Shown: piece by piece, positions 7,764-44,458 of the stretch
Layout of the letters: each line of letters starts with the position of its first letter
Numbering within the stretch: position 1 is the first letter of the stretch
Virus record (IMG/VR): IMGVR_UViG_3300006790_000001
Location: 1-64,000 of that record
DNA: 64,000 bases
Origin: a virus
Direction: 5' to 3' (one strand)
Made by a program: the position numbers and the translations under genes
Notes under the pieces: generated by a model
Told to the model about the DNA's origin: nothing
Databases searched by the model: none
Seen by the model: the letters and a program-made list of their open reading frames with translations, nothing else

Positions 7764-10700
7764 ATGACCTACAACGTTGGGTTCCTTGAAGTCGACGGTG
7801 TCCGCATCGTGGACGGCTGCAGGTTGAAGCATTATTTGACCGCAGCCGGACCGGACCGGCCGCACCCGTCGTGGAACGCTCCCAACGATTGCCCGGATCA
7901 TTGTTGCGACGAGGACGCAGGGGTCTACGCCACTCCTTCGACGGTGTCGAATCCGGCTCCTTGGTGGGACCCTTACCAACCCGCTTCGGCTGATTTCTTC
8001 GGGGTCAACATCCGGTCGATCACGCGATCAGGCGGGTACAACACCAAGACAGAAGAAGGGAACCCGCTTCCTGCTATCCGCGAGGATACCAAGCAGTACC
8101 TGTTCATCGATGCTGAGATCGTCAGCTCGTCGTGTGAGGGGACCCGGTTCGGCGAAGAGTGGTTGAACCGGTTGTTTGCTAATTCGTGTACTGCGACCGG
8201 CGGCGCTGAGGTGACGTTCAGGCAGCATTGCGATTACGTTCGCCCGGCGACGCAGACGCTGGACGATGAGCTGCATTTCTACAGTGCTGGCGGGGCCACG
8301 ATCTATGCCAACTTCGTTCGGGACTATGACGGCACGATTACGGACACGAACCTTGGCGCAGATCTGGGGTTGACGGTTCTGACTGGTTCGTCGGAGGGCG
8401 ATGGTTCTGCTTGGGCGATCGACGGTTCTCAGAATTTGTTGTTCATCAACCCGGAGCTGGCGGTGGCGACGGTCACGTTGCCGATCGCCGGTCTGCACAC
8501 TGGGAACGTCACTGGCCTGGCTTGGTGGGGCGGCGTTCTGTACGGGATCACTTCGACGTTTGAGCTGTTGCGGTTGAATTGCACGACTGGTGTGACGACC
8601 GTGTTGGCGGGTCCGTTCACTGGGGTGGCGGCTGATCCTTGGTTGGGTGTGAACGCTGACGGGTTCTATGTGCCGAGTGCTACGGCTTCGACTATCGCCA
8701 CCATCGATAGCTCTGGCGAGACGTTGGCGGCTACCGATGTGTTCTCGGCGAGCGGGACGGTGACTTACGGGCAGTCTGCGCCGGATGGCCGGTTCTATGC
8801 TTTGATCACTGGGACCGGTTTCGCTGAGTTGATCAATCTGGCTGGCGGCGGGTTGGGTGGCGAGCTGGTGTTGGATGCTGCGCCGAACGAAACGTTGTTC
8901 GCCCCTTGGTGGCGGTCCGATCAGTTGGTGACTGTGCCATCTGAGACCGTGTACGGCAAGCGGGTGATGAGTGGCGTGCAGTTGACTCAGCCGATTCGGA
9001 TCGTGCCCGATGAGATGTTCCCTGATTGTTGTGCTGGGGGGCGGATCGAGATCGTTCTTGAGTCGAGGTTGCCGCGTTTGCATTTGCCGTCGAGGGAGTT
9101 GTGGGCGGTCGACTTGCAGTCGCCGACGTTCACTGGGGTACTTCCGAAGTTAGATCCGGCTCCGATCCCGGCGGCTGTTGAAGAGGTTTCTGCCCAGTTG
9201 AATCGGGTTGACAGGAATGTGAAGTTGTTCCGGGACGGGACTTGGTGTGATGTCAATCCTTCTTTCTCGACGGCGGATAATCCGTGTTATCGGCTGGTCG
9301 TGACTGAGTGGGAGGATTACACGTCGCCAGCGGATACCGACGAGTACGGAATCGTGGTCTACTACGATGGGCTTTCTAGGTCTCCGGGAATCTGGTCCTG
9401 GGAGCCGGTGAATGCTGCGTTGGAGTTGTCTTGCGATAAGACGGTCACGATTTCGCAGGTGCTGGTGAAGAACCCTACGTACACGCCTGAGGATAGTTCT
9501 TGCTCTGATTCTGAGCGGGCTTGTGCGGAATTGTGGGGGTTCGGCGTTGATGATGATGGGTTCCTTACGAACTTGCCGCCCCTCCTGACCAACTCTGAAA
9601 TTTGCGACGAAAACGCTTACTGGCTTTCTTCGGGGTGGACGCAGGCTGCCATCGATTACGGCTTCGACCGTTACTTCAATTATCTGGTTTGCGTTGGGGC
9701 CCAGACCGATAGAGACATAACTATCACGGACACGTTTCTGAGCACGATGAAGTCCGATTGTGCAGCTAACGGGGGCGTCGCGGGCCTCATCAAGATGAAG
9801 GTCGATGGCACTGGGGCCGTCTTATTCATTGCGAGCGGGAACTCTGGCTGCACAGGCACTTTCTGCGATCCCGAGGCCGACTGTCAGCAATATGTTATTG
9901 ATGCCCCTGGCATGAACGTCGCCGCTTCCCAATCAGGCGACAACGTCTTTGGTGGTCTCTGCGAATCGAGCGGCACTATTAACAGCGCCGGGCCGAACGC
10001 GATCCCGGCCGCTTCTGCTCTGGACCTGTCCAGCCAGCCCGATATCTGTCAACAGTGGGTCGATGTCAGCACGGGCACTAGCGGGACCCCGTTTGTTGTA
10101 GAACTCACCAACGACTCGACACCCTCCGATCTCGGTTCCTTTGCTGTTAACCCAACCTGGAACGTGAAGTCCCCGACAGACTTGGCGTTTGAGAGAACGA
10201 ACGGCCGGTTCGTCGCGAACGGTGTTTCAATTTGCACTATCAACCCTGAACTGTGCAACGAGATCGGCAACATCACGCTCACGGAAGGCCCCGACACTTG
10301 GACCGCTAACAGCTGGGGTCACGACACCTTTGCCACGTTCCCACCTGAAGGGTTCATCGGTTTCGAAGACAGCGCTCAAACTACTGCCGACTGCGACGCC
10401 ATCGTTTCTCTGACCAGGATCGAGGGCGAACCGAATTGTCAGATCTGCACCGGCCGTCTGTGTTCGGGCGGTCACCCGATCGAACCGTACCGGGAACGGC
10501 GCAGCTGTTGGGGTGCCCCATTGACCGGGAACGGGTGGGCGCAAACGTTCACGCTGGAGGGCGGCGACCTGGACCTGTACGACCTTGAATGGTCGATCGA
10601 GACCGGGTCCACGTCTCTTGATGGGACGTCGATCGAGGTCTACCCATTTGTTGAGCCGTACGGGCCTGGCCGGTTGGATTCGATCTGGTGGTACCGCCAA

Positions 10701-10973
10701 TATTCGAATCCGTGCGAGGTGATCGAGCTTTGGGGCGCTGAGCCTGACGAAACGATTTCGTTGAATGGGGCGGCCGAAGTGTTTGAAGTTTCTTGCGGGA
10801 TCGGCACTCGGGACGCTCGGTTGAATGCTCGGTCTGAGCGGGGCCGGGTCTATCGGGCTAAGACTTTGACCGGCGGCAAGTACATCGCTGTGGTCGTTGC
10901 CCCGTCCGATGCCTTTGGCGGCTCGACGGGTTCTAGGGTCGAGCTGCTTGCTCATCAGCGGACCGGGTTGTGA
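7764..10973 (+). CDS. minor tail protein (distal tail / baseplate-like), Cys-rich
   Basis: 1069-aa ORF starting 2 nt after the tape measure stop. Gly/Thr/Ser/Cys-rich beta-type composition. Assignment by synteny. Confidence 0.6.
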   Translation: MTYNVGFLEVDGVRIVDGCRLKHYLTAAGPDRPHPSWNAPNDCPDHCCDEDAGVYATPSTVSNPAPWWDPYQPASADFFGVNIRSITRSGGYNTKTEEGNPLPAIREDTKQYLFIDAEIVSSSCEGTRFGEEWLNRLFANSCTATGGAEVTFRQHCDYVRPATQTLDDELHFYSAGGATIYANFVRDYDGTITDTNLGADLGLTVLTGSSEGDGSAWAIDGSQNLLFINPELAVATVTLPIAGLHTGNVTGLAWWGGVLYGITSTFELLRLNCTTGVTTVLAGPFTGVAADPWLGVNADGFYVPSATASTIATIDSSGETLAATDVFSASGTVTYGQSAPDGRFYALITGTGFAELINLAGGGLGGELVLDAAPNETLFAPWWRSDQLVTVPSETVYGKRVMSGVQLTQPIRIVPDEMFPDCCAGGRIEIVLESRLPRLHLPSRELWAVDLQSPTFTGVLPKLDPAPIPAAVEEVSAQLNRVDRNVKLFRDGTWCDVNPSFSTADNPCYRLVVTEWEDYTSPADTDEYGIVVYYDGLSRSPGIWSWEPVNAALELSCDKTVTISQVLVKNPTYTPEDSSCSDSERACAELWGFGVDDDGFLTNLPPLLTNSEICDENAYWLSSGWTQAAIDYGFDRYFNYLVCVGAQTDRDITITDTFLSTMKSDCAANGGVAGLIKMKVDGTGAVLFIASGNSGCTGTFCDPEADCQQYVIDAPGMNVAASQSGDNVFGGLCESSGTINSAGPNAIPAASALDLSSQPDICQQWVDVSTGTSGTPFVVELTNDSTPSDLGSFAVNPTWNVKSPTDLAFERTNGRFVANGVSICTINPELCNEIGNITLTEGPDTWTANSWGHDTFATFPPEGFIGFEDSAQTTADCDAIVSLTRIEGEPNCQICTGRLCSGGHPIEPYRERRSCWGAPLTGNGWAQTFTLEGGDLDLYDLEWSIETGSTSLDGTSIEVYPFVEPYGPGRLDSIWWYRQYSNPCEVIELWGAEPDETISLNGAAEVFEVSCGIGTRDARLNARSERGRVYRAKTLTGGKYIAVVVAPSDAFGGSTGSRVELLAHQRTGL

Positions 10974-15238: not shown

Positions 15239-16179
15239 GTACAAGCTGTTCCGTTTGCGGAGGATTCTCATGTGTTTGCCCACCGTCTGCTGGTTGGACA
15301 CCCCCTACTTATACGGGTCGGGGATTCGTCGTTGACAGTGATGGGACGCTGAACGTCGACCGGACCTTCGCCGCTTGTGTGGAAGACACCAATGGCGACC
15401 GGTTCACGATGATCTATGACCCAGCCACCGACTCGGCTGAGTACGAGCCGCTGGACACTACGGCCTTGACCCCTGTGGGTACTTTGATTTCGTGCGCCGG
15501 GTTCCATAACTTCGGTTGCGTCGATGATGGCGTGCAGCAGTGGCTGATCATGCCGAGTGCTGACGGGTTGAGCACTGTGTTCGTTGACCCGACGACTGGG
15601 GTGGCGGGGACTCCTGGGGCTTCGTACGCTCCATGTGGCGGGTATCCGTTGGCGTCGGATACGTCGGCGGGGATTGTTGAGTTGGCGACTGGAGCGGAGG
15701 TGGCGGCTGGGACCGACTCGACGCGTGCGGTCACGCCTGACTCTGCCAAGTCGATCGGTGCTGGCAACTTTGTTGATATTCAGAGGTTCAACCAGTCCGG
15801 TTTGGGGTTGACTCACACGACATTGATGGGCGCTTACGCCCAAGCGGGGGTCACTCAGACGTGGAACAGGCCGACGGGTTGGAACACTTACGATCTCCAC
15901 GTCCTTAGCGGCCAAGCCGAAGTGAATATCACGCTTGCCGATCAGTTCTACGTGGGTGTGAGAATTAATAGCGACACGACTTCTTACGGTTTGAATGACA
16001 ATTGGCGAGGGTCTTCTAGCTCCCAGACCATAGGGCTTATTCATACTCCTGTGTTGGGAGAGTCGGCAGCTACTTACAACTTTGACATGGAGTACAGGCT
16101 GTTAGCCATTGCTGGTACTAGCCCAACGTTTACGTTCTCTAGTTACGACTTCTTAGTACTTGCGATAAGGCAGTCGTGA
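15235..16179 (+). CDS. tail fiber-like protein
   Basis: Contains GIVELATGAEVAAGTDSTRAVTP (about 15670-15738), a motif I recognise from many phage tail fiber proteins. N-terminus is Cys-rich (CSVCGGFSCVC). Confidence 0.55.
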   Translation: MSTSCSVCGGFSCVCPPSAGWTPPTYTGRGFVVDSDGTLNVDRTFAACVEDTNGDRFTMIYDPATDSAEYEPLDTTALTPVGTLISCAGFHNFGCVDDGVQQWLIMPSADGLSTVFVDPTTGVAGTPGASYAPCGGYPLASDTSAGIVELATGAEVAAGTDSTRAVTPDSAKSIGAGNFVDIQRFNQSGLGLTHTTLMGAYAQAGVTQTWNRPTGWNTYDLHVLSGQAEVNITLADQFYVGVRINSDTTSYGLNDNWRGSSSSQTIGLIHTPVLGESAATYNFDMEYRLLAIAGTSPTFTFSSYDFLVLAIRQS

Positions 16180-30952: not shown

Positions 30953-30987
30953 TCAACCCAACCCAACCCAACCCACGGAGGTTCCAC

Positions 30988-32542: not shown

Positions 32543-32573
32543 TCCAACCACCAACCACAGAAAGAGGTTCCAC

Positions 32574-36324: not shown

Positions 36325-36833
36325 GGCAATATCAAACCAGGCGTCTTCGCTTCGGCAGCTGATTTCGTTGCCGCAAGAGTTCCGGCTTCCCGCTCCTTCA
36401 CGATCAGCGCACGAATTTCTTCGACCATCGGCGTCTCGATCGCCCCGGCCTCAGCGACAGCCGTAGTGAAGTCCATCAACGACATCTGCAAAGCAACCTT
36501 CAGGCCGTCAAGCGTCACCGAGCCCTGAGCCGCAGCGCCGGTCATAACGTCCCGTCGAGCAGTGTTCTCAATCACAACGCCGACCGTCTTGATGATCGAC
36601 GGCATGAACTGAATCAACGCATCCACCGCATCGAATTCAAGAAGCTTCTCCAGTTCCCGCATCACGGAATGGGGCGGCTGATTAGCGTGATAGATCGACT
36701 CGCCTTCGGTTAGGGCAAGGCCAGAAGCCTTTGACGAACTAGCCAGGGCAACGGTCGTCCCCCGGACAGTTCCCTCTTCCTCGACAGATGTAGTTGGGTT
36801 GTCCATGAAGGCGAGGTTAGACGTTGAATGCAT
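36321..36833 (-). CDS. hypothetical helical protein (170 aa; alternative start 36806), minus strand
   Basis: Track ORF with a 4-nt overlap to 35845..36324. Divergent from the structural operon. Confidence 0.45.
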   Translation of the reverse strand: MHSTSNLAFMDNPTTSVEEEGTVRGTTVALASSSKASGLALTEGESIYHANQPPHSVMRELEKLLEFDAVDALIQFMPSIIKTVGVVIENTARRDVMTGAAAQGSVTLDGLKVALQMSLMDFTTAVAEAGAIETPMVEEIRALIVKEREAGTLAATKSAAEAKTPGLILP

Positions 36834-36879
36834 GCTTAACTAGATGCGATCATGTAGGTCGATGCCGAGGAGGGCGTCC

Positions 36880-38124
36880 ATGACCATTAACTTCTCTTTC
36901 CCCGGCACTTGCGGAACCGATGCCGGGCCGAACTCTGACGGCGTCCTTGTCGGCTCTCTCGCAGAGTCGGCGATCGCAACGGCGCTTCTTGAATCCCGTG
37001 CGGGCAGCTCGCTTGTCATCACCGATGACGGCGGGCTCTACGTCAATGAAACGACCCCGGCCAACGAAGCAACGGCCGACGACGTCGAGATCGTCGGAGC
37101 CACCCTGGCCGCCAACGATGCGATCTATTTCGGCGCTTCGGCCGAGTTCACCGAGATCCTCATCAACATCACGACCCAGGGCGACTACACGGACCCGGTA
37201 TGGGCGTGGGAGTACTGGAACGGAACGGCATGGACGGCCGTAGCGAACCTCGTTGACGGCACCAGCTTCTGGGAGGCCGCAGCAGGAACGGTTCAGGTCA
37301 GCTACGACGCCCCGACCGACTGGGCTCAGAACACCGTCGACAACGTTCTCGCCTACTGGGTGCGGGCCAACTGCACGTCGGTCACAGCGACCGTTACACA
37401 GTGCCTCATCGGCCAGGTGTGGATCGTCGGAGCGACCCCCGCTTTCACGAACGACACGGTCGACATCAACGACGCTGACGTCGGCGACGTCGATGCGCTC
37501 CCGGCTACCGCAGCTCTCAACGACGCCTTCTACTACGGCATGGGAGAGAAGTTCTGCAAGCTGAAGATCACGACATCGCAGGCCCGCACCGGCACGGCGA
37601 CTCTCACCTGGGAGTACTGGAACGGCTCCGCATGGGCCGCTCTCGCCACCGTCGAAGACAAGTCGGACGGCTACGCTGCGACGGCCGGAACCCACATGGT
37701 TTCGTTCGCCCCGCCCAGCGACTGGGCGGCCAACACCGCAGCCAACGGCCCTGACGGCGAAGCCGGGTTCTTTGTGCGGTCCCGCCTGTCGGCGTTCACT
37801 TCGGTGACTCAGCAGCCGCTCATCACCCAGGCGTTCGCTTTCCCTGTCAGCACCGGAGCGGTCGGCGTGCCCCGCAACGTCGGCGGTCAGGTCACTGACG
37901 TGACTTGCGACGCCATCACTGTTTCAGGCGCTAACAACGACAGCGTGTTCCTTCTGATCAATGCCGACACGGGCGCTTCGGAAGAGTTCACCTGGACCCA
38001 GGCGACCAAGACCGTGGCGAGTGCCATGAGCATCTTCAACTCTCCAGGCGCTTCCTATGTTGTCGCCCAGATCGTTGAAGACGGCACGACTGAATTTGCT
38101 TCGGTGTCGTTCTACGTCCGATAG
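36880..38124 (+). CDS. hypothetical protein with two tandem ~110-aa W-x-YWNG-type beta-sandwich-like repeats, in the slot normally held by the small terminase
   Basis: ATG 36880 is preceded by GAGGAGGG. Repeat 1 is DAIYFGASAEF..ILINI....VWAWEYWNGTAWTAV..LVDGT......GTVQVSYDAPTDWA....YWVRA. Repeat 2 is DAFYYGMGEKF..LKITT....LTWEYWNGSAWAAL..VEDKS......GTHMVSFAPPSDWA....FFVRSRL. Confidence 0.55.
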   Translation: MTINFSFPGTCGTDAGPNSDGVLVGSLAESAIATALLESRAGSSLVITDDGGLYVNETTPANEATADDVEIVGATLAANDAIYFGASAEFTEILINITTQGDYTDPVWAWEYWNGTAWTAVANLVDGTSFWEAAAGTVQVSYDAPTDWAQNTVDNVLAYWVRANCTSVTATVTQCLIGQVWIVGATPAFTNDTVDINDADVGDVDALPATAALNDAFYYGMGEKFCKLKITTSQARTGTATLTWEYWNGSAWAALATVEDKSDGYAATAGTHMVSFAPPSDWAANTAANGPDGEAGFFVRSRLSAFTSVTQQPLITQAFAFPVSTGAVGVPRNVGGQVTDVTCDAITVSGANNDSVFLLINADTGASEEFTWTQATKTVASAMSIFNSPGASYVVAQIVEDGTTEFASVSFYVR

Positions 38125-39699
38125 ATGACAGCGGTTCAAGTCGATAGCGGGCTGTACCTGCCCGACGGTCGCCTTGACTTGGAAGCCGCAAGAGCGCATG
38201 GCGAATTTCTCCTTGGGTTGATGAAGGAAGCTTCGTCACCCGAGGAGATCGCCGCTGTCCAGGCCGCTATCCGAAAGCACGCCCATGTGGTGGCGTTCGA
38301 TTCTCCAGCTCGGCTGGCTGAAGCGACCGACCCGGAGTGGCAGTCAGCGCCTCATCTGGAGCTGATCAGCGACACGATCCGGCGGTCGTTGACCGAACGC
38401 GTGACGGCCATCATCGAGGTGCCGGTCCGTCACGGGAAGAGCGAACTGATCAGCGCTCACGGACCTGCCTGGTATTTAGAGAATGTTCCGAACGGCAAGG
38501 TCATCAGCCTCAGCCACTCGCTTTCCCTTGCGGAGGAATGGGGGCAGCGGAATCGCGACCTGATCGAAGACAACCCAGATCTGTTCTGGGCTGCTCAGGT
38601 CCGGTCAGACAGTCGCCGGATTCAGCAATGGAAGACAACTGCGGGTGGCGTGATGATCAGCGTCGGCGCTCGGGGATCGATCACTGGTAAGGGTGCCAAC
38701 CTGATGCTGGTAGACGACCCCGTGAAAGACGCTGAGCAGGCGTTCAGCCCTGCCTATCGGGAGAAGTTCCGGCGATGGTGGCAGATGACGATCCGTACCC
38801 GCATGCAGCGAGGGGGGTCGATCGTGATCGTGCAGGCTCGTTGGTGCGAGGATGATCTGGCTGGCTGGCTGCAAGAGCATGCGGCTGAGAATCGGTTCGC
38901 TACCCAGTGGGAAGTGATCAGTCTCCCTGCTTTGGCTGAGCCTGGGCCTGAAGAAGCTGAGGCTGATGGTTTCGATCCGCGAAAGTGGCGGGACCCTGTC
39001 GGTCGGAAGATCGGCGATCCGTTGTGGCCTGAGATGTGGAGTGCTGACGAGCTAGAGGTGGCTAAGGCTGACGTCGGCCGGTTGGCTTGGCGGGCGCTCT
39101 ATCAGCAGAAGCCAGTTGATGCTGAAGGGACGTTGTTCCCTGTTGAATCGTGGACGTACGTCGATTCGACCAAGGTCCCGTCGCTCGTGTCGATTATCCG
39201 CAAGTGGGACCTTGCTGCGACGATGGACGAAAGTTCTGACCCTGACTGGACGTGTGGCGTCTTGTTTGGGAGGGACATCCAGGGGTTCAGTTACGTTCTG
39301 GATGTGGTGCGGTTTCGGCAGGGTCCGGCGGCGACTGACCGGATGATTGCTGCGACGGCGAAGCGGGACGGGCTTCAAGTGCCTATCAGCTTTGATCAGG
39401 ATCCGGGTTCGGCTGGTAAGCGAGATGCTGCTTATTTGGCTCGTGAGGTCGTCCCTGGGCACACTGTGAGCTTCGAACCGCCACGGGGTAAGAAGATGGC
39501 TCGGGGGTTTGCTGGTCAGGTGCAGCTTGGGAATGTGCGTCTGGTGAGGGCTGGTTGGAATTATGAGTTCGTGACTGAGCATTCAAAGTTTCCGGGTGGG
39601 CGTCACGATGACATGGTGGATGCCGCTGCTGCAGCGTTTGCGAACACTGTCGATGGGCTTGCTGTGGGTGGGGCGGTCGGCAGCTCGGTTCGCAGCTGA
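38125..39699 (+). CDS. terL: terminase large subunit
   Basis: ATPase motifs: VPVRHGKSEL (Walker A-like) and LMLVDDPVKD (Walker B). Also QARWCEDDLAGWL. C-terminal nuclease motifs: WDLAAT... and GGRHDDMVDAAAAAF. Confidence 0.9.
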   Translation: MTAVQVDSGLYLPDGRLDLEAARAHGEFLLGLMKEASSPEEIAAVQAAIRKHAHVVAFDSPARLAEATDPEWQSAPHLELISDTIRRSLTERVTAIIEVPVRHGKSELISAHGPAWYLENVPNGKVISLSHSLSLAEEWGQRNRDLIEDNPDLFWAAQVRSDSRRIQQWKTTAGGVMISVGARGSITGKGANLMLVDDPVKDAEQAFSPAYREKFRRWWQMTIRTRMQRGGSIVIVQARWCEDDLAGWLQEHAAENRFATQWEVISLPALAEPGPEEAEADGFDPRKWRDPVGRKIGDPLWPEMWSADELEVAKADVGRLAWRALYQQKPVDAEGTLFPVESWTYVDSTKVPSLVSIIRKWDLAATMDESSDPDWTCGVLFGRDIQGFSYVLDVVRFRQGPAATDRMIAATAKRDGLQVPISFDQDPGSAGKRDAAYLAREVVPGHTVSFEPPRGKKMARGFAGQVQLGNVRLVRAGWNYEFVTEHSKFPGGRHDDMVDAAAAAFANTVDGLAVGGAVGSSVRS

Positions 39700-39729
39700 T
39701 GCCCAATTTGGGGGAACTTGCACCGGGTG

Positions 39730-39754
39730 GGAACATACCGGGCGCTGCGGTGTT
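39730..39754 (+). promoter_or_regulatory. ECF (SigH/SigE-type)-like promoter P5
   Basis: GGAACATACCGGGCGCTGCGGTGTT matches GGAAC-N17-GTT. It lies 31 nt after the TerL stop, upstream of a ~0.9-kb ORF-poor region. Confidence 0.4.
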
Positions 39755-40653
39755 GTACCAAGTGACTGCGGGGGCCCGGCCCCCGGGGCGGCGCTCCGTG
39801 CGCCTCCCGGCCGCCGGTCCGTAGTCCACAAGAAGCCCTTCGGGCCCCGAGCGTCCGCTTCGGCGGGTGCAAGGAGTGAGGCCAGAGGTGCCGGTAGGAG
39901 TCCGGCAGCGAGGGGTGGACATGAGATCGAGGGATCGGGTGAGCGCCGAGTGCGTGAGCCCGACACCACGACCCACGGTGCGCACCAAGGCGATTGAGCC
40001 TGGCGCTCCGTCGACCGCCTAGGGCACCGACCGGCTGACGCCGCGTTCTGACACCGGGGGCACCAAAGAGTCGACGGCTAGAGCGTCAGCAGCCGAGCGG
40101 ACACCAACGGTCAGGTGTGATCGGCAGACTCGCCGCTCACCCGATTCCTCGACAGAGATCGATCCCCGGCGATCCGGGGATCGAGGATCGACCGCTCATC
40201 GAGCAACCCGCTGTCGTGATAGCGGCGGGCCAGCCGTAAGCGTCGAAGGAGATCCCATTCGGGCCACTGGCAACTGGTAAGACCAAGCAGCGCCGACGAC
40301 GCAATCCGAGCACTGCTTCATCACGGGTGAGCGGTCGATCCATCGATCTCAGGAGGTAGTGCCCTGCTCCCCGCTCCGGGCTCGGAGAACCGAGCGCCGT
40401 AGAAGCCGGACAGGGTCGGGGCCCAAGAGGCCACCGCCAAACCGAGGGTGCCAATCCCACCACCTCCATTGATCGGCGTTGCAGGGCGTGGCTGCCCTGA
40501 TGGCTGAGGTGAAAGGTCAGCACGGGTCCGGCCGACCCAGGAAGGCGAAAGCCGACGCAAGTTGAAGTTCGCCCGAACCTCTCAGCCCCCGCTTGAAAGG
40601 GGGAGTCCCAGGGCCCAAACAGGGACTCGCATCGGGCTTGATCAAGACAAGAA
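39755..40653 (+). ncRNA. candidate large structured noncoding RNA (class unknown)
   Basis: No credible ORF on either strand; all six-frame ORFs here are Arg/Gly/Pro/Ser-rich and overlap each other. Stable hairpins are dense, including UUCG- and GAAA-type loops. The region is bounded by promoter P5 and a 12-bp terminator hairpin. Confidence 0.35.
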
Positions 40654-40685
40654 GAGACCCGCTCCCCGGGAAAGGAGCGGGTCTC
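40654..40685. terminator. bidirectional intrinsic terminator hairpin
   Basis: GAGACCCGCTCC (40654-40665) pairs perfectly with GGAGCGGGTCTC (40674-40685). The hairpin is flanked by A-rich sequence upstream and TTT downstream. It can serve the + strand region and the minus-strand gene 40739..41257. Confidence 0.6.
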
Positions 40686-40702
40686 TTTGGCATGTTGGTA
40701 GG

Positions 40703-40724
40703 CCAGCCCCCTTGGAAAGGCTGG
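40703..40724 (-). terminator. hairpin just downstream of the minus-strand secreted-protein gene
   Basis: CCAGCC (40703-40708) pairs with GGCTGG (40719-40724), with a 10-nt loop. It lies 15 nt after the stop codon. Confidence 0.35.
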
Positions 40725-40738
40725 TCTCACAACTGTAG

Positions 40739-41257
40739 TCAACCAGTGAACGCCGGAACGGGAGCCGCCACAGGGGCAGGAGTCGCTGTAGGCACCGGGG
40801 TCGCCGTAGGCACCGGCACCACATACATCACCGTCTGGCACAGACCAGTCTCGATGTCGCCATTCGTGTACCGGGTGTAGCAACTAATGACCGGACGATC
40901 CGAATCGTACGGAGCGACTGGAACAGCCTTCTCATGCCCAACGAACAAACAATGCGTATCGCGCAGCGGCGGCCACGGACCGATCGTCTCGTTGTACGAC
41001 AGGTCGCTTGAAGTCCGAAACACGGCGCTGGGCTTCAAGCCAACCGGACACCGCCACCGCTCGCCGGTCTCAATGCACTCAGGACCATCTGCTCCATGAA
41101 GCTCAGTGCATTGCGGAGGCGAGATGTGAACATCAAAGGTGTTCTGCGCTGGCTGCTCCGACAAGGGAGGCGGCTCTGGCGTCTGAGCGACAGCGTTGCT
41201 GACGCCGACGGCCAGAAGCGCAACGCTCAGCGCTGAAAGAATCATGGACTTAATCAT
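40739..41257 (-). CDS. secreted Cys-containing protein with a C-terminal Pro/Thr/Ala repeat (moron candidate)
   Basis: ATG 41257 is preceded by AAGGAGA. Signal peptide: MIKSMILSALSVALLAVGVSNAVA/QT (AxA cleavage site). 8 Cys. C-terminal repeat: PVPTATPVPTATPAPVAAPVP. Codon usage has more T-ending codons than the surrounding genes. Confidence 0.7.
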   Translation of the reverse strand: MIKSMILSALSVALLAVGVSNAVAQTPEPPPLSEQPAQNTFDVHISPPQCTELHGADGPECIETGERWRCPVGLKPSAVFRTSSDLSYNETIGPWPPLRDTHCLFVGHEKAVPVAPYDSDRPVISCYTRYTNGDIETGLCQTVMYVVPVPTATPVPTATPAPVAAPVPAFTG

Positions 41258-41711
41258 CCGGGGATGTCTCCTTGTTTGATGACGCATCAACGGTACCCGG
41301 AGCGAAGCTAAGGTGGTTGCAATGGTACGAAATGGCGCTGGCAGCTCCATCCGAAACGATCTTGAGCAAAGCCCCGCCGGACCCAACGAAGTTCGCGTGC
41401 AAGACATCACTGTCGACGTGTACGACAAGAACCAGGGCTGCGCTTGGGAAGAGACCCTGGGCGGTGTAAGCCATCGGTGCAGTGGCCCCCCGGACTGGAA
41501 ATACAACCACCGCTGGTGGTGCCTGACCCACATCGACCAGAAGCTTTGCTGCGGATCGCGATTGAGCAACTCTCAACGCCGATCGATCCTGACCAACCCC
41601 AAGCGCAACCATTGGCTCGCCAGGCAACGGCATCTCGCTGGCAAAGAGCAGACAGCAATCGACGAGTTCGAAACTCAATTCCCCAGCACAATCAATGACC
41701 CAGAGGAGCAC
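41250..41711 (-). CDS. hypothetical protein (153 aa, GTG start), possibly co-transcribed with the secreted protein gene
   Basis: Normal Ala/Gly/Val/Leu-rich composition, G-rich first codon positions, and an 8-nt overlap with the downstream minus-strand gene. It competes with the + strand ORF 41313..41747, which has higher GC3 but an odd N/Q/R/C/W/H-rich composition. Confidence 0.3.
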   Translation of the reverse strand: MLLWVIDCAGELSFELVDCCLLFASEMPLPGEPMVALGVGQDRSALRVAQSRSAAKLLVDVGQAPPAVVVFPVRGATAPMAYTAQGLFPSAALVLVVHVDSDVLHANFVGSGGALLKIVSDGAASAISYHCNHLSFAPGTVDASSNKETSPDD

Positions 41712-41743
41712 ACATTCTCATGGCGCGAATACCAGGCGAGGCA

Positions 41744-42547
41744 ATGAGTAGCCTCAACCCTGAAGACCTGATCTTGCCGGGGCAGAAATCCGAACAAGAC
41801 ATCGCCGAGATGCTGGCCGGGAACGACGCCAAGGTCGACCCGAAGTTGGATCTCTGGAACCTCGTCGGCCAGCACCAACAGGGCGGTCTGCCAGATAAGA
41901 CCGCACCCGATTACGTCGCCCGAAACACAAGCGCCGAGATCCACAACTACGGGCTGCTGACCCTGATCAACGTCATCGTGTTCGCCCCGGCTGGGGTCCT
42001 GCTCGGAGCCTTGAAAGACAAAGCGACGGGCGTGATCGTCGGGTGGAACTTGTTGCCCTACGAGGGCAACGAGCTGACGGTCGAGCAGGTCAAGCAAGCT
42101 CGGACAGCAGTCGAGCAGAAATGGCCGGGCCTGCAGCAAATGCTGATGGACCACCATCAGATGGCGTCCCGGATCAACCTGATCGAAGTCGAACAGATGG
42201 AGATGGATAACCCCGAGTGGGGGCCGACGCCGAGAGAGCAGGATCGGGCTCAAGGCATCGAGAAGACCGAACGATCGGTGAAGCAGGTGTTCACCGAAGT
42301 GGGTGGCCAGATGGTCGAGACCACGTTCGAAGAACAACCGGTCGATGGCAGCACGTTGATGTGCGCTGTCTGCAACTTGGTTCCGATCGTCGGGGACCTG
42401 ATGCAGTACGAGCCGATCGAGATTGAAGACGGCGGGGGGTTCCGGTGCCCGACGTGTCAGCAATCTCATGTCGAGTCGGAGATGGAAGCAATAGACGCTG
42501 AATATCGACGCAAGAGGGAAGCGGCTGGTTCTGACGCTGATGGCTGA
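41744..42547 (+). CDS. hypothetical protein with a C-terminal zinc-ribbon-like motif
   Basis: ATG 41744 is preceded by GGCGAGG; the track ORF starts at 41720. Motif: CAVC....(26 aa)....CPTC. Confidence 0.5.
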   Translation: MSSLNPEDLILPGQKSEQDIAEMLAGNDAKVDPKLDLWNLVGQHQQGGLPDKTAPDYVARNTSAEIHNYGLLTLINVIVFAPAGVLLGALKDKATGVIVGWNLLPYEGNELTVEQVKQARTAVEQKWPGLQQMLMDHHQMASRINLIEVEQMEMDNPEWGPTPREQDRAQGIEKTERSVKQVFTEVGGQMVETTFEEQPVDGSTLMCAVCNLVPIVGDLMQYEPIEIEDGGGFRCPTCQQSHVESEMEAIDAEYRRKREAAGSDADG

Positions 42548-42803
42548 GAGACCCCGATGCCCAGAATGCTTTAACTTCGAAATATTCTGTGTTTGCGCTA
42601 ACCACTTGTTCGACGAACTAAACGAATCGTTTCAAGAGATACTGGAAGAGTACGAAGAAACACATATCCGAGAACGTCTTATAGACGCTATGGATCGCAA
42701 TGTCGTGATCGTATTCTTTCCTAACGGCGACACTTACGAAGTAAGTCCGCACTGTAACTGCGACGTCTGCGACGAGGTAGTTCATCGGCTCGGGTGGACC
42801 TGA
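42540..42803 (+). CDS. hypothetical Cys-rich protein (87 aa), lower-GC gene
   Basis: Track ORF. It carries three Cys clusters, in order: CPEC, CVC, and CNCDVC. It looks AT-richer than its neighbours. Confidence 0.45.
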   Translation: MAERPRCPECFNFEIFCVCANHLFDELNESFQEILEEYEETHIRERLIDAMDRNVVIVFFPNGDTYEVSPHCNCDVCDEVVHRLGWT

Positions 42804-42844
42804 GGTGTAGCATTCGCAAGCATCGACCCGAGGAAGAGCGCCAC

Positions 42845-44458
42845 ATGGTATCGATCCCCGAGCGACGGCGTCCAACACGCTATGACTTGCCCGTCGACCT
42901 AACTTCTCATCCGCTCGCCGCTAAGACAGCAGCGGTCGCCCCTCTGACGACCTTCACGAGTGTCCACGAAGCGGTCGCTCAGCAAGAGTGGCAGAGGAAG
43001 ATCATGGACTGGGTCGTAGAGGGACCTGGCGTCTTGGGTTTCGCCCTGAACCTTAAAGCGACTGTTTGCGCACTCGGTCGTTGGTATGTGGCCGAGCCGG
43101 ATTCGAGCGGCGGTTGGCGCAGGGTCCAGTCGGCTAAGGAACAGGCGATTCTTCACGCTTATCGCGGCGTCAACGGCGAACCGCGAGAAGAGCTGTTTCG
43201 GCAGCAGATGTTCACGACTGAATCAATCGGCGAGTTCTTGCTGGCCACCCACAACACAGACCACGGGCCGCGATACGAGCTTCTGCAGATGAATCAGATC
43301 GCCGCTGACCGGGTCGGGTCCGGCGATTACCTTGCGATCCAGGACACCCCGGCGCAGCGGCGTCAAGACACCGAGAACGACAATGACTATCTCCGCTACC
43401 TGCCGAAGGACCAAGTCGTCCGCATATGGCAACGGAACCCGTGGTGGCCTAACCTAGCTCACAGCCAGATGCAGCGAGCCGTGCCAGATATTGAGCGGCT
43501 CATCAGCTCGACCAGACGCATCAAGCGGCTGTCCGACTCTCGTCTGGTCAATAACGACATAGTGTGGCTAGCTGCCGAAGCTGCCATGCAGTACGCCGGG
43601 CTGGGCGACGAGCAGCGGCGAGCAGACTTCCACCGCGATTTCCGCAACCATGCTCAGAAGACTTTCACCGAGTATGGCGGCGTCGCCGAGGTCGCCCCGT
43701 TCACGCTTTCGACCGGCTACCAGTGGGGGCCGCCGATGCGGATCGACATGGGCGATCCGATCGAGGAATATGACCTTGCTGCCGAAGACTCTGGTTACAA
43801 GGCGATCGGCCGTGCGCTCGATCTGCCGATGCGAGTGTTCTTCGAATCCGAACAGGGCGGCAACCACTGGTCGGATTGGTTGACCGAATCGCAGTTCATT
43901 CGCACAAGCGCCGAGCCTTCAGGCCAGAAAGGTTTAGACCAGCTGACAATCTCGTGGCTCCGACCCATGTACGAGTTCTTGCAGTCGGTCGGCTGGCTGC
44001 CCGACCAGATCGATCCCCAGAACCGGCGGATCATGCTGGACATGTCTGGCGTCCTCAAGAACCCCGACGAGTCAAAGGCGCTTCTTGAGGCGTACCGGTA
44101 CGGCATCCCGAGCAGGGACACTGTCGCCAAGCGAGGACTCAACCTCACCGAGGACGAGATCATGGAGATGCCGTCCGACTATGACGATTTCCGAACCTGG
44201 GCCGAGTTCGTTGCCCGCCCTGTCGGCGGGAAGCCGATGGGGCCGGACGCTTTCGCCGATTCGAAACCACCAGAGCAGGCACGCCTGGCATCTGCGTTGA
44301 GTGCTGGCCAAGAGAACAACATCCCGCCCCAGCTGCTCGGTCTCGCTCTCAGGTCAGTTGAGCTGGAACCGGACGACTCGATCAGGAAAGCCGAAGAGGT
44401 CGTCTATCTGGATCATGACGCATACGCCGAAGACTCTGACCTTCTGGAGCTGCTGTGA
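42845..44458 (+). CDS. portal protein
   Basis: 537 aa from ATG 42845, preceded by GAGGAAGAG. The size, the position between terminase and the MuF-like gene, and the acidic C-terminus all fit a portal protein. Family not determined. Confidence 0.65.
   Translation: MVSIPERRRPTRYDLPVDLTSHPLAAKTAAVAPLTTFTSVHEAVAQQEWQRKIMDWVVEGPGVLGFALNLKATVCALGRWYVAEPDSSGGWRRVQSAKEQAILHAYRGVNGEPREELFRQQMFTTESIGEFLLATHNTDHGPRYELLQMNQIAADRVGSGDYLAIQDTPAQRRQDTENDNDYLRYLPKDQVVRIWQRNPWWPNLAHSQMQRAVPDIERLISSTRRIKRLSDSRLVNNDIVWLAAEAAMQYAGLGDEQRRADFHRDFRNHAQKTFTEYGGVAEVAPFTLSTGYQWGPPMRIDMGDPIEEYDLAAEDSGYKAIGRALDLPMRVFFESEQGGNHWSDWLTESQFIRTSAEPSGQKGLDQLTISWLRPMYEFLQSVGWLPDQIDPQNRRIMLDMSGVLKNPDESKALLEAYRYGIPSRDTVAKRGLNLTEDEIMEMPSDYDDFRTWAEFVARPVGGKPMGPDAFADSKPPEQARLASALSAGQENNIPPQLLGLALRSVELEPDDSIRKAEEVVYLDHDAYAEDSDLLELL

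Follow-up and report, generated by a model that had tools for sequence, protein, structure and literature searches.

A gene-free gap (39700-40738) lies directly downstream of the large terminase gene (terL) of an uncultured phage, represented here by 64,000 nucleotides of DNA (positions 1 to 64,000 of the IMG/VR virus record IMGVR_UViG_3300006790_000001; hereafter the window), which cover nearly the entire genome of ~65.5 kb. The gap is a real, unclassified, structure-bearing non-coding element of one small phage lineage: it folded better than expected by chance, and its parts under selection are a near-invariant 184-nt 5' block and two independent long-hairpin domains with helices of 16-25 bp, which, as judged from the alignment with a close relative, were kept through compensatory changes. 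With three genomes behind it, the element counts as a lead and still falls short of a finding. An earlier interpretation made from the letters alone (the sequence-only reading) had proposed a large structured RNA at this place. The region is indeed non-coding and part of it has an evolutionarily kept structure, while this part amounts to only ~430 nt in two separate domains; the proposal of a single ~0.9-kb RNA was not supported, as the 3' third was swapped in the close relative and a more distant one, L003, shared only short islands.

Structure of the gap

The structure present in the gap exceeded chance. The whole gap folded 60 kcal/mol better than its dinucleotide shuffles (z = -6.3 for the plus and z = -5.7 for the minus strand), with single-sequence fold energies of -505.1 and -505.2 kcal/mol for the two strands. 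It contained five perfect stems of at least 11 bp (5 of the 28 in the genome, where the average is 0.44 per kb) and two of the genome's three perfect stems of at least 14 bp, while copies of the helix arms were found nowhere else in the 64-kb window. All the stems listed in the sequence-only reading were present; its description of the region as hairpin-dense over ~0.9 kb was right in that the gap as a whole folds beyond chance, but the excess was confined to 39922-40352, which taken alone also surpassed composition-matched shuffles (z = -6.6). Neither the 5' block (39760-39925; z = -1.8) nor the segment 40342-40650 (z = -1.06, like shuffled sequence) was exceptional, and the UUCG and GNRA hairpins of the gap were not significantly enriched. 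A scan in local 200-nt windows of the gap, noisy with its 12 shuffles, gave no outliers.

Comparison with a close relative

The close relative was traced via P0121 (TerL cluster at >=90%) and P0122 (a 97% homologue of the 172-aa gene that bounds the gap downstream). It consists of two contigs from sample SRR26413794, L165 and L166, which together span its gap; this assembly is fragmented everywhere (contigs of 7.0 and 3.4 kb). The flanking DNA of the two phages was ~88-90% identical and the flanking genes differed by 9-12%, while the 5' block included identical runs of 60 and 92 nt. Elsewhere in the 9.4-kb alignment, runs of such length occurred only in two intergenic control regions, 36809-36908 and 42777-42921. 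Both of these regions (100 and 145 nt), located at intergenic gene starts, were fully identical in the two phages and are probably conserved control regions.

Domain 1, closed by a 25-bp helix (39927-39951 with 40128-40152), was ~80% identical between the two phages, yet its helices persisted. Seven compensatory pair changes were distributed over four helices (39931/40148, 39935/40144, 39961/40123, 39963/40121, 40010/40075, 40030/40047 and 40033/40042); one of them was a swap from G-C to C-G, and two lay in a small hairpin of only four pairs. In addition, one G-C pair had become G.U, and the long helix was interrupted once, where U-A had turned into C.A. Domain 2 is closed by a 16-bp helix (40185-40200 with 40326-40341), on which a 6-bp helix (40215-40220 with 40320-40325) is stacked. 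Here a single pair was compensated, from G-C to U-A, and one U-A had become U.G; runs of 57 and 26 nt were identical.

These changes were evaluated on the alignment of the two sequences over 39700-40352 using RNAalifold, with 100 column-shuffled alignments as controls. The consensus energy was -251.7 kcal/mol against -210.7 +/- 7.3 for the shuffled alignments (z = -5.6), and the 9 compensatory pairs, compared to 2.9 +/- 1.7 in the controls, were reached by none of the 100 shuffles. A separate count on the consensus structure gave 8 compensatory pairs; 2 of 500 shuffles came up to this number, and controls with slid partners gave 0-2. When the structure was predicted from the window phage alone, and thus was free of bias from the relative, 4 compensatory pairs were still counted (slid controls 0-2; reached by 40 of 500 shuffles), and ~83% of the corresponding cells in the relative remained paired. 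With regard to the covariation that the sequence-only reading had asked for, compensation exceeded that of shuffled controls, within an alignment of two sequences only.

The rest of the gap differed between the two phages in whole pieces. The perfect 11-bp hairpin noted in the sequence-only reading exists in the window phage, while the relative lost it by a 27-nt deletion; likewise, the GAAA loop at 40547 and three of the other listed stems (40380-40395, 40586-40603 and 40605-40626) are real but lie in a segment missing from the relative, where 40342-40650 is swapped for ~110 unrelated bases. Both the hairpin and this segment can be gained and lost, and the region as a whole proved modular between a conserved 5' block and a conserved terminator. 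In the terminator of the relative, a T-A pair was replaced by C-G, a compensatory change, and the U-tract was longer; the second hairpin behind it was conserved with one additional base pair. The parts of the gap and the genes around it are listed in Table 1.

Table 1. Parts of the non-coding gap and the genes that surround it (window coordinates; 'relative' is the close relative represented by L165 and L166).
Feature	Position	Strand	Remarks
TerL, large terminase gene	38125-39699	+	Pfam Terminase_6N/6C; 441 homologues; stop codon TGA; upstream boundary
Fast-evolving spacer	39700-39738	+	~9 differences in 39 nt to the relative; includes the start of the candidate promoter
Candidate promoter of the extracytoplasmic function (ECF) type, GGAAC-N17-GTTG	39730-39755	+	Motif match, conserved in the relative
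Conserved 5' block	39739-39922	+	2 differences in 184 nt to the relative
GC-rich hairpin H1	39764-39826	+	Within the 5' block
C(UUCG)G hairpin	39851-39870	+	Within the 5' block
20-nt island GGAGTGAGGCCAGAGGTGCC	39873-39892	+	Within the 5' block; common to L003
Hairpin	39889-39907	+	Within the 5' block
Domain 1, branched long hairpin, 226 nt	39927-40152	+	Inverted repeat I1
Perfect 11-bp hairpin	40159-40184	+	Inverted repeat I14; window phage only
Domain 2, hairpin domain, 157 nt	40185-40341	+	Kept in the relative
Window-specific 3' segment, 309 nt	40342-40650	+	Not alignable to the relative
Bidirectional intrinsic terminator hairpin, 15-16-bp stem	40651-40688	both	Conserved in the relative
Second hairpin	40697-40727	-	Directly past the stop of the 172-aa gene; direct repeat D1; ncr1175-like match
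172-aa convergent gene	40739-41257	-	Gene call on L006, positive codon score; downstream boundary
Two genes past the 172-aa gene	41322-41747 and 41744-42547	+	Followed by a small open reading frame before the portal
Portal gene	42845-44458		2.1 kb beyond the gap

Coding potential

The absence of credible coding from the gap, already claimed in the sequence-only reading, was confirmed: no frame in 39700-40738 had a coding signal and the GC content by codon position was flat across this region. Codon log-odds, from a model for which 14 long genes of the phage had served as training set, were negative for every open reading frame (ORF) of the gap and for all six frames, compared to +0.26 to +0.52 for real genes; none of the gap ORFs matched Pfam, and six-frame translations compared with the relatives by tblastn revealed no protein-level similarity. 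A conserved reading frame is ruled out because the indels between the two phages (+6, +2, -1, +21, -1, +1, -27, -3, +15 and +1) break every frame. A protein frame kept by relatives would have spoken against the RNA proposal; none was conserved in the close relative, and the gap of an independent assembly of the same phage (contig L006) was identical to that of the window. Two candidate ORFs, 39699-39824 (beginning at the TerL stop) and 39867-40022, were rejected as not conserved: the start is missing from the close relative and from L003, and a +2 indel breaks the frame.

Putative transcript and its ends

From sequence features we infer transcription of the gap, its strand and its 5' end. The GGAAC-N17-GTTG motif pointed out in the sequence-only reading was conserved in the close relative, with variation in its spacer and flanks, and is retained as a candidate promoter. 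Among the eight GGAAC-N16-18-GTTG matches of the window, two on the minus strand (30959-30985 and 32545-32571) were similar to each other (GGAACCTC...GGTTGG..GGTTG) and may represent a repeated promoter type of that strand.

At the 3' end, the sequence-only reading had placed a 12-bp terminator hairpin at 40654-40685. The hairpin was indeed predicted as a terminator, but its stem is longer (15-16 bp, 40651-40688). It combines a GC-rich hairpin with a U-tract as expected of intrinsic terminators: the minus-strand tail passed the terminator scan, the plus-strand tail is UCUCUUUGG in the window phage and UCUCUUUUGUGGUUUUGG in the relative, and terminator-like Rfam matches were obtained below threshold. 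This hairpin is likely the 3' end of a plus-strand transcript; being bidirectional, it may just as well work for the convergent minus-strand gene, while the second hairpin is probably the terminator of that 172-aa gene. The arrangement resembles the bidirectional terminators between convergent genes in its T-rich tails on both strands and in the second hairpin that follows, although such a likeness explains only the last ~80 nt of the gap.

Several features favor the plus strand. Its direction is that in which terL is read; the close relative has the better terminator U-tract; the two terminators should stop transcription entering from the minus-strand gene; where the two long helices deviate from Watson-Crick pairing, the plus strand has G.U pairs; a C(UUCG)G loop is present; and the RNAalifold energy is slightly better than on the minus strand (-251.7 vs -245.8).

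More distant relatives

Among 5.8 billion proteins, only three TerL relatives above 60% identity were found. L003 (TerL 77%) has a gene-free 1.1-kb gap directly after TerL, L004 (67%) has genes immediately after TerL and no gap, and the sequence of L005 (63%) stops too early past TerL for its gap to be judged. No comparable gap was present in distant TerL relatives of 38-42% identity. The L003 and window gaps had in common an island of 20 nt, GGAGTGAGGCCAGA(R)G(K)GCC, with an exact 14-mer that was equalled or exceeded in 2 of 300 shuffles, the CCCAATTT sequence just 3' of the TerL stop, and weak colinear islands corresponding to 40342-40650 (AACCGAGCGCC, GGTGAAAG and CCAGGGCC); the colinear chain was reached by 3 of 300 shuffles. 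These islands lie within ~180 nt in L003 and are spread over 900 nt in the window phage, and the 3' ones are missing from the close relative. The covariance model of domain 2 matched only the window phage and the close relative, and nothing in L003 or other loci. The three phages thus share the start and the position of the gap, and not one large RNA.

The L003 gap had several features of its own. Three hairpins (10481-10495, 10679-10693 and 10834-10848) carried the tRNA T-loop-like sequence GGGTTCGA(T/A)TC, the third of them being an 8-bp minihelix, CCATCGGG-TTCGAAT-CCCGATGG; outside the loop they had nothing in common. Repeated GAAGCGAGT motifs and a 26-bp helix (9950-9975 with 10208-10233) were also present, while ARAGORN and Rfam detected no tRNA in this gap. 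The L003 TerL was called as two overlapping ORFs (8197-8745 and 8696-9754) with a tblastn frame switch near 8568/8570, either an assembly frameshift or a real one.

Further searches yielded no additional homologues. Blastn against GenBank phages found none for the gap; the 14-mer island gave 110 matches in IMG/VR and a 17-18-mer gave 45 matches in a metagenome collection, all of them by chance with unrelated flanks, the phage itself being absent from both collections; and TerL-based locus searches in IMG/VR and GTDB genomes returned distant relatives or nothing. Of the other homologues of the 172-aa gene, P0123 and P0124 were on short contigs with no homology to the gap and P0125 was in an unrelated context.

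Known RNA families

Rfam 15 gave no match at gathering score in the gap or elsewhere in the whole 64-kb window, and at E <= 10 the gaps of the three phages produced only chance-level or terminator-like matches far below threshold. The families that the sequence-only reading had proposed to check, GOLLD, ROOL, group I/II introns, tmRNA and RNase P, were unmatched even at E <= 10, and the OLE, raiA and HEARO covariance models likewise did not detect the gap. In the absence of any covariance-model match, the gap is not a GOLLD, ROOL, intron, tmRNA, RNase P or pRNA. The phi29 pRNA (Rfam Phage_pRNA), also a structured phage RNA near packaging genes, resembles the gap in position only: it is ~120-174 nt long, belongs to phi29-like phages and works with another packaging ATPase.

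Two candidates were rejected on further grounds. An ORF-less group I/II intron lacked a model match, and TerL is complete, aligning with its homologues to about residue 512 of 524 and closing with a stop codon, with nothing downstream that continues the frame. For a tRNA or tmRNA, ARAGORN found nothing in the gap with default settings and, when relaxed, only low-scoring calls without a credible cloverleaf.

Genomic context

The window belongs to a lineage without a cultured relative: the TerL of the nearest cultured phage is merely 38% identical, while a 100% identical TerL was found on a 65,561-nt JGI contig and on the Logan contig L006. Two statements of the sequence-only reading about the surroundings of the gap had to be corrected. 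The gap does not extend from TerL to the portal gene, since a minus-strand gene, two plus-strand genes and a small ORF intervene; and its GC content does not match that of the phage but is higher (66.6%, and 73.9% in the 5' block, vs 60.4% for the window). The homologues of the 172-aa gene were 97%, 69%, 55% and 48% identical to it.

Upstream, a 426-aa gene (36844-38124, plus strand), the stop of which abuts the TerL start, had a weak match to an HNH-endonuclease PHROG (E = 1.7e-4). It was present in the window phage and the close relative and absent from L003 and L004, where TerL directly follows divergent minus-strand genes, and may be an inserted gene of the homing type. Just upstream of the portal, a low-GC patch (47-52%; 42540-42803, plus strand) contained an 87-aa ORF rich in Cys pairs (MAERPRCPEC...); the gene caller for L006 put a 55-aa minus-strand ORF (42618-42785) inside this patch. 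The single tRNA of the phage, identified by ARAGORN, was a tRNA-Thr with the anticodon CGT (15589-15668, plus strand).

Interpretation

The preferred reading, of which we judge the chances to be even, is that 39700-40738 is a non-coding, lineage-specific, modular spacer that serves as a plus-strand transcript region. The transcript would be either the 3' untranslated region of terL or a separate RNA of ~930 nt starting from ~39760 via the GGAAC-N17-GTTG promoter, and in both cases would end at the hairpin terminator 40651-40688. Its long double-stranded stems would act as processing and stability elements at the RNA level, that is, as RNase III-type targets and 3' protective hairpins. In this way they would determine what becomes of the terL-side transcript and, jointly with the double terminator, shield it from the convergent gene. 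For the invariant 5' block we propose that it contains the promoter with its leader or, alternatively, a protein-binding site. The RNase III/stability role, suggested by the length and position of the helices, is put forward tentatively and with less confidence than the reading as a whole. The intergenic RNase III sites of T7 and the sib site of lambda are processing and retroregulation hairpins, single and ~50-70 nt long. The gap resembles them in having near-perfect stems of 16-25 bp in a non-coding region downstream of a gene and adjoining a terminator, and differs from them in its branched domains of 157-226 nt with conserved interiors.

A number of observations weigh against this reading. 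The GGAAC...GTTG motif occurred 8 times in the window compared to 1.8 expected, mostly inside genes, and a sigma-70-type site was not found. Both transcription and the transcript ends are assumptions. Folded as single sequences, the plus and minus strands were equal in energy, and a strand-neutral count of G.U versus A.C over all stems favored neither strand. The conservation of the 5' block may be at the DNA level, because its fold is no better than chance. Only two sequences could be aligned, and template switching between inverted-repeat arms can mimic compensation without selection; such switching is a less ready explanation for the compensations seen in short inner helices. The element is dispensable in this phage group, as L004 lacks the gap, and the RNase III/stability role draws only on helix length and analogy.

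Among the alternatives, the one that survives best, although still unlikely, is that of a mostly functionless hotspot made of palindromic insertions, scars of mobile elements and decayed small genes, where the promoter and terminator alone are selected. It agrees with the variable content of the slot between terL and the conserved block of 141-aa, 267-aa and portal genes (the gap plus one gene in the window phage, a gap plus 7 small genes in L003 and only genes in L004), with the gain or loss of whole hairpins and segments between the two close phages, with the likeness of the helix arms to terminal inverted repeats and with the lack of homologues in IMG/VR, the metagenome collection and GenBank phages. 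In its units of ~170-230 bp with inverted repeats of ~25 bp and in the clean presence or absence of one palindrome between relatives, the gap also resembles miniature inverted-repeat or repetitive extragenic palindromic (REP)-like DNA elements. In contrast to those, the domains had no other copies in the 64-kb genome or in the searched collections and no target-site duplications were seen, while their interiors were conserved with compensatory changes. Such a hotspot would also leave unexplained the long identical runs inside domain 2, compensation in excess of shuffles, and a 184-nt block that diverges several-fold less than the neighboring genes; no protein remnant was detected.

Somewhat less probable again is a cis element acting at the DNA level, such as a pac or cos site, a genome terminus, a replication origin or palindromic protein-binding sites. 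The position directly after terL, a 5' block conserved in sequence and not in excess structure, the long inverted repeats and the equal folding of both strands would all fit. The two contigs of the close relative end inside the 5' block (L165 at window position 39828 and L166 at 39831), just past the GC-rich hairpin 39764-39826, as a physical DNA end would produce; this could be either such a genome end or an assembly break at the hairpin, and two other assemblies run through 39828-39831 uninterrupted, while the assembly of the relative is fragmented throughout. Terminase_6-type TerLs usually package by a headful mechanism from a site near terS, which argues against a packaging site at this place. 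An origin finds no AT-rich unwinding region (GC 67-74%), no iterons and no inflection of the GC skew, and the motif GATCGGGTGAGCG, a candidate for protein binding, was not significantly repeated. Furthermore, compensation extended to inner helices of irregular shape and to a hairpin of just 4 bp closing an 8-nt loop, none of which would be extruded from duplex DNA.

The proposal of the sequence-only reading, one large ornate trans-acting RNA of ~0.9 kb forming a new class like GOLLD or ROOL with a tertiary or multimeric fold, has a still lower probability. There is a non-coding stretch of ~1 kb with a candidate promoter and a terminator at its ends, a strong overall z-score, a conserved structure in its center and an invariant 5' block, and the L003 gap is similar in size and place and has the 20-nt island in common. 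GOLLD likewise has one conserved and one variable half and is frequently found near tRNAs (PMC12286853), of which the T-arm-like hairpins of L003 are reminiscent, as they are of the ROOL-tRNA link; like the gap, GOLLD and ROOL are phage-encoded, non-coding and several hundred to ~900 nt long. They consist, however, of many short helices and pseudoknots, while the perfect or near-perfect 16-25 bp helices of the gap and the gain or loss of its whole modules are unlike known ornate RNAs; the conserved structure is limited to ~430 nt, the modules are swapped between close relatives and the element is known from 3 phage genomes only. No Rfam family matched at E <= 10. The 3' third folds like shuffled sequence and is exchanged for other bases in the close relative, so that the pairings between the 5' and the 3' third seen in the single-sequence fold cannot be conserved, the relative having no partner for them. 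Domain 2 is without a counterpart in L003 and the tetraloop hairpins are not enriched.

A bolder variant, which we regard as very doubtful, sees in the three phages a class of large phage RNA that is new and built from modules. It would combine a short conserved 5' core, made up of the island GGAGUGAGGCCAGA and its neighboring hairpins, with interchangeable cargo modules, represented by the long-hairpin domains in the window phage and its close relative and by the T-arm minihelices in L003. Such an RNA would be expressed late in infection from its own stress-type (ECF-like) promoter and act in trans, for instance by decoying or scaffolding host RNA-processing or tRNA-targeting defense enzymes; in function it would then correspond to GOLLD, the linker of which carries a tRNA.

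Finally, a protein-coding gene that frameshift errors or a reassigned stop codon would have masked is already close to refuted: although one minus-strand frame across the gap holds only two stops, both TGA, and gene callers predicted a 204-aa minus-strand ORF in the close relative, two stops lie within chance for a frame of 67% GC, TerL itself terminates in TGA, the minus-strand ORFs of the two phages are similar only over a 32-aa stretch mirroring a conserved helix arm, and the negative codon scores, the flat GC content at third positions, the frame-breaking indels and the identical second assembly all stand against it.

Implications

Non-coding DNA on a kilobase scale is rare in phages, and here a part of it is selected for sequence (the 5' block) and for pairing (the domains). 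If the region is merely one of processing and termination, this would be ordinary biology, and its annotation would still be useful against false ORF calls such as that made in the close relative. If an RNA is made, the few large phage RNAs known would be joined by a new structured one that belongs to no class yet, and the module swapping between close relatives supplies natural deletion variants for approaching its function.

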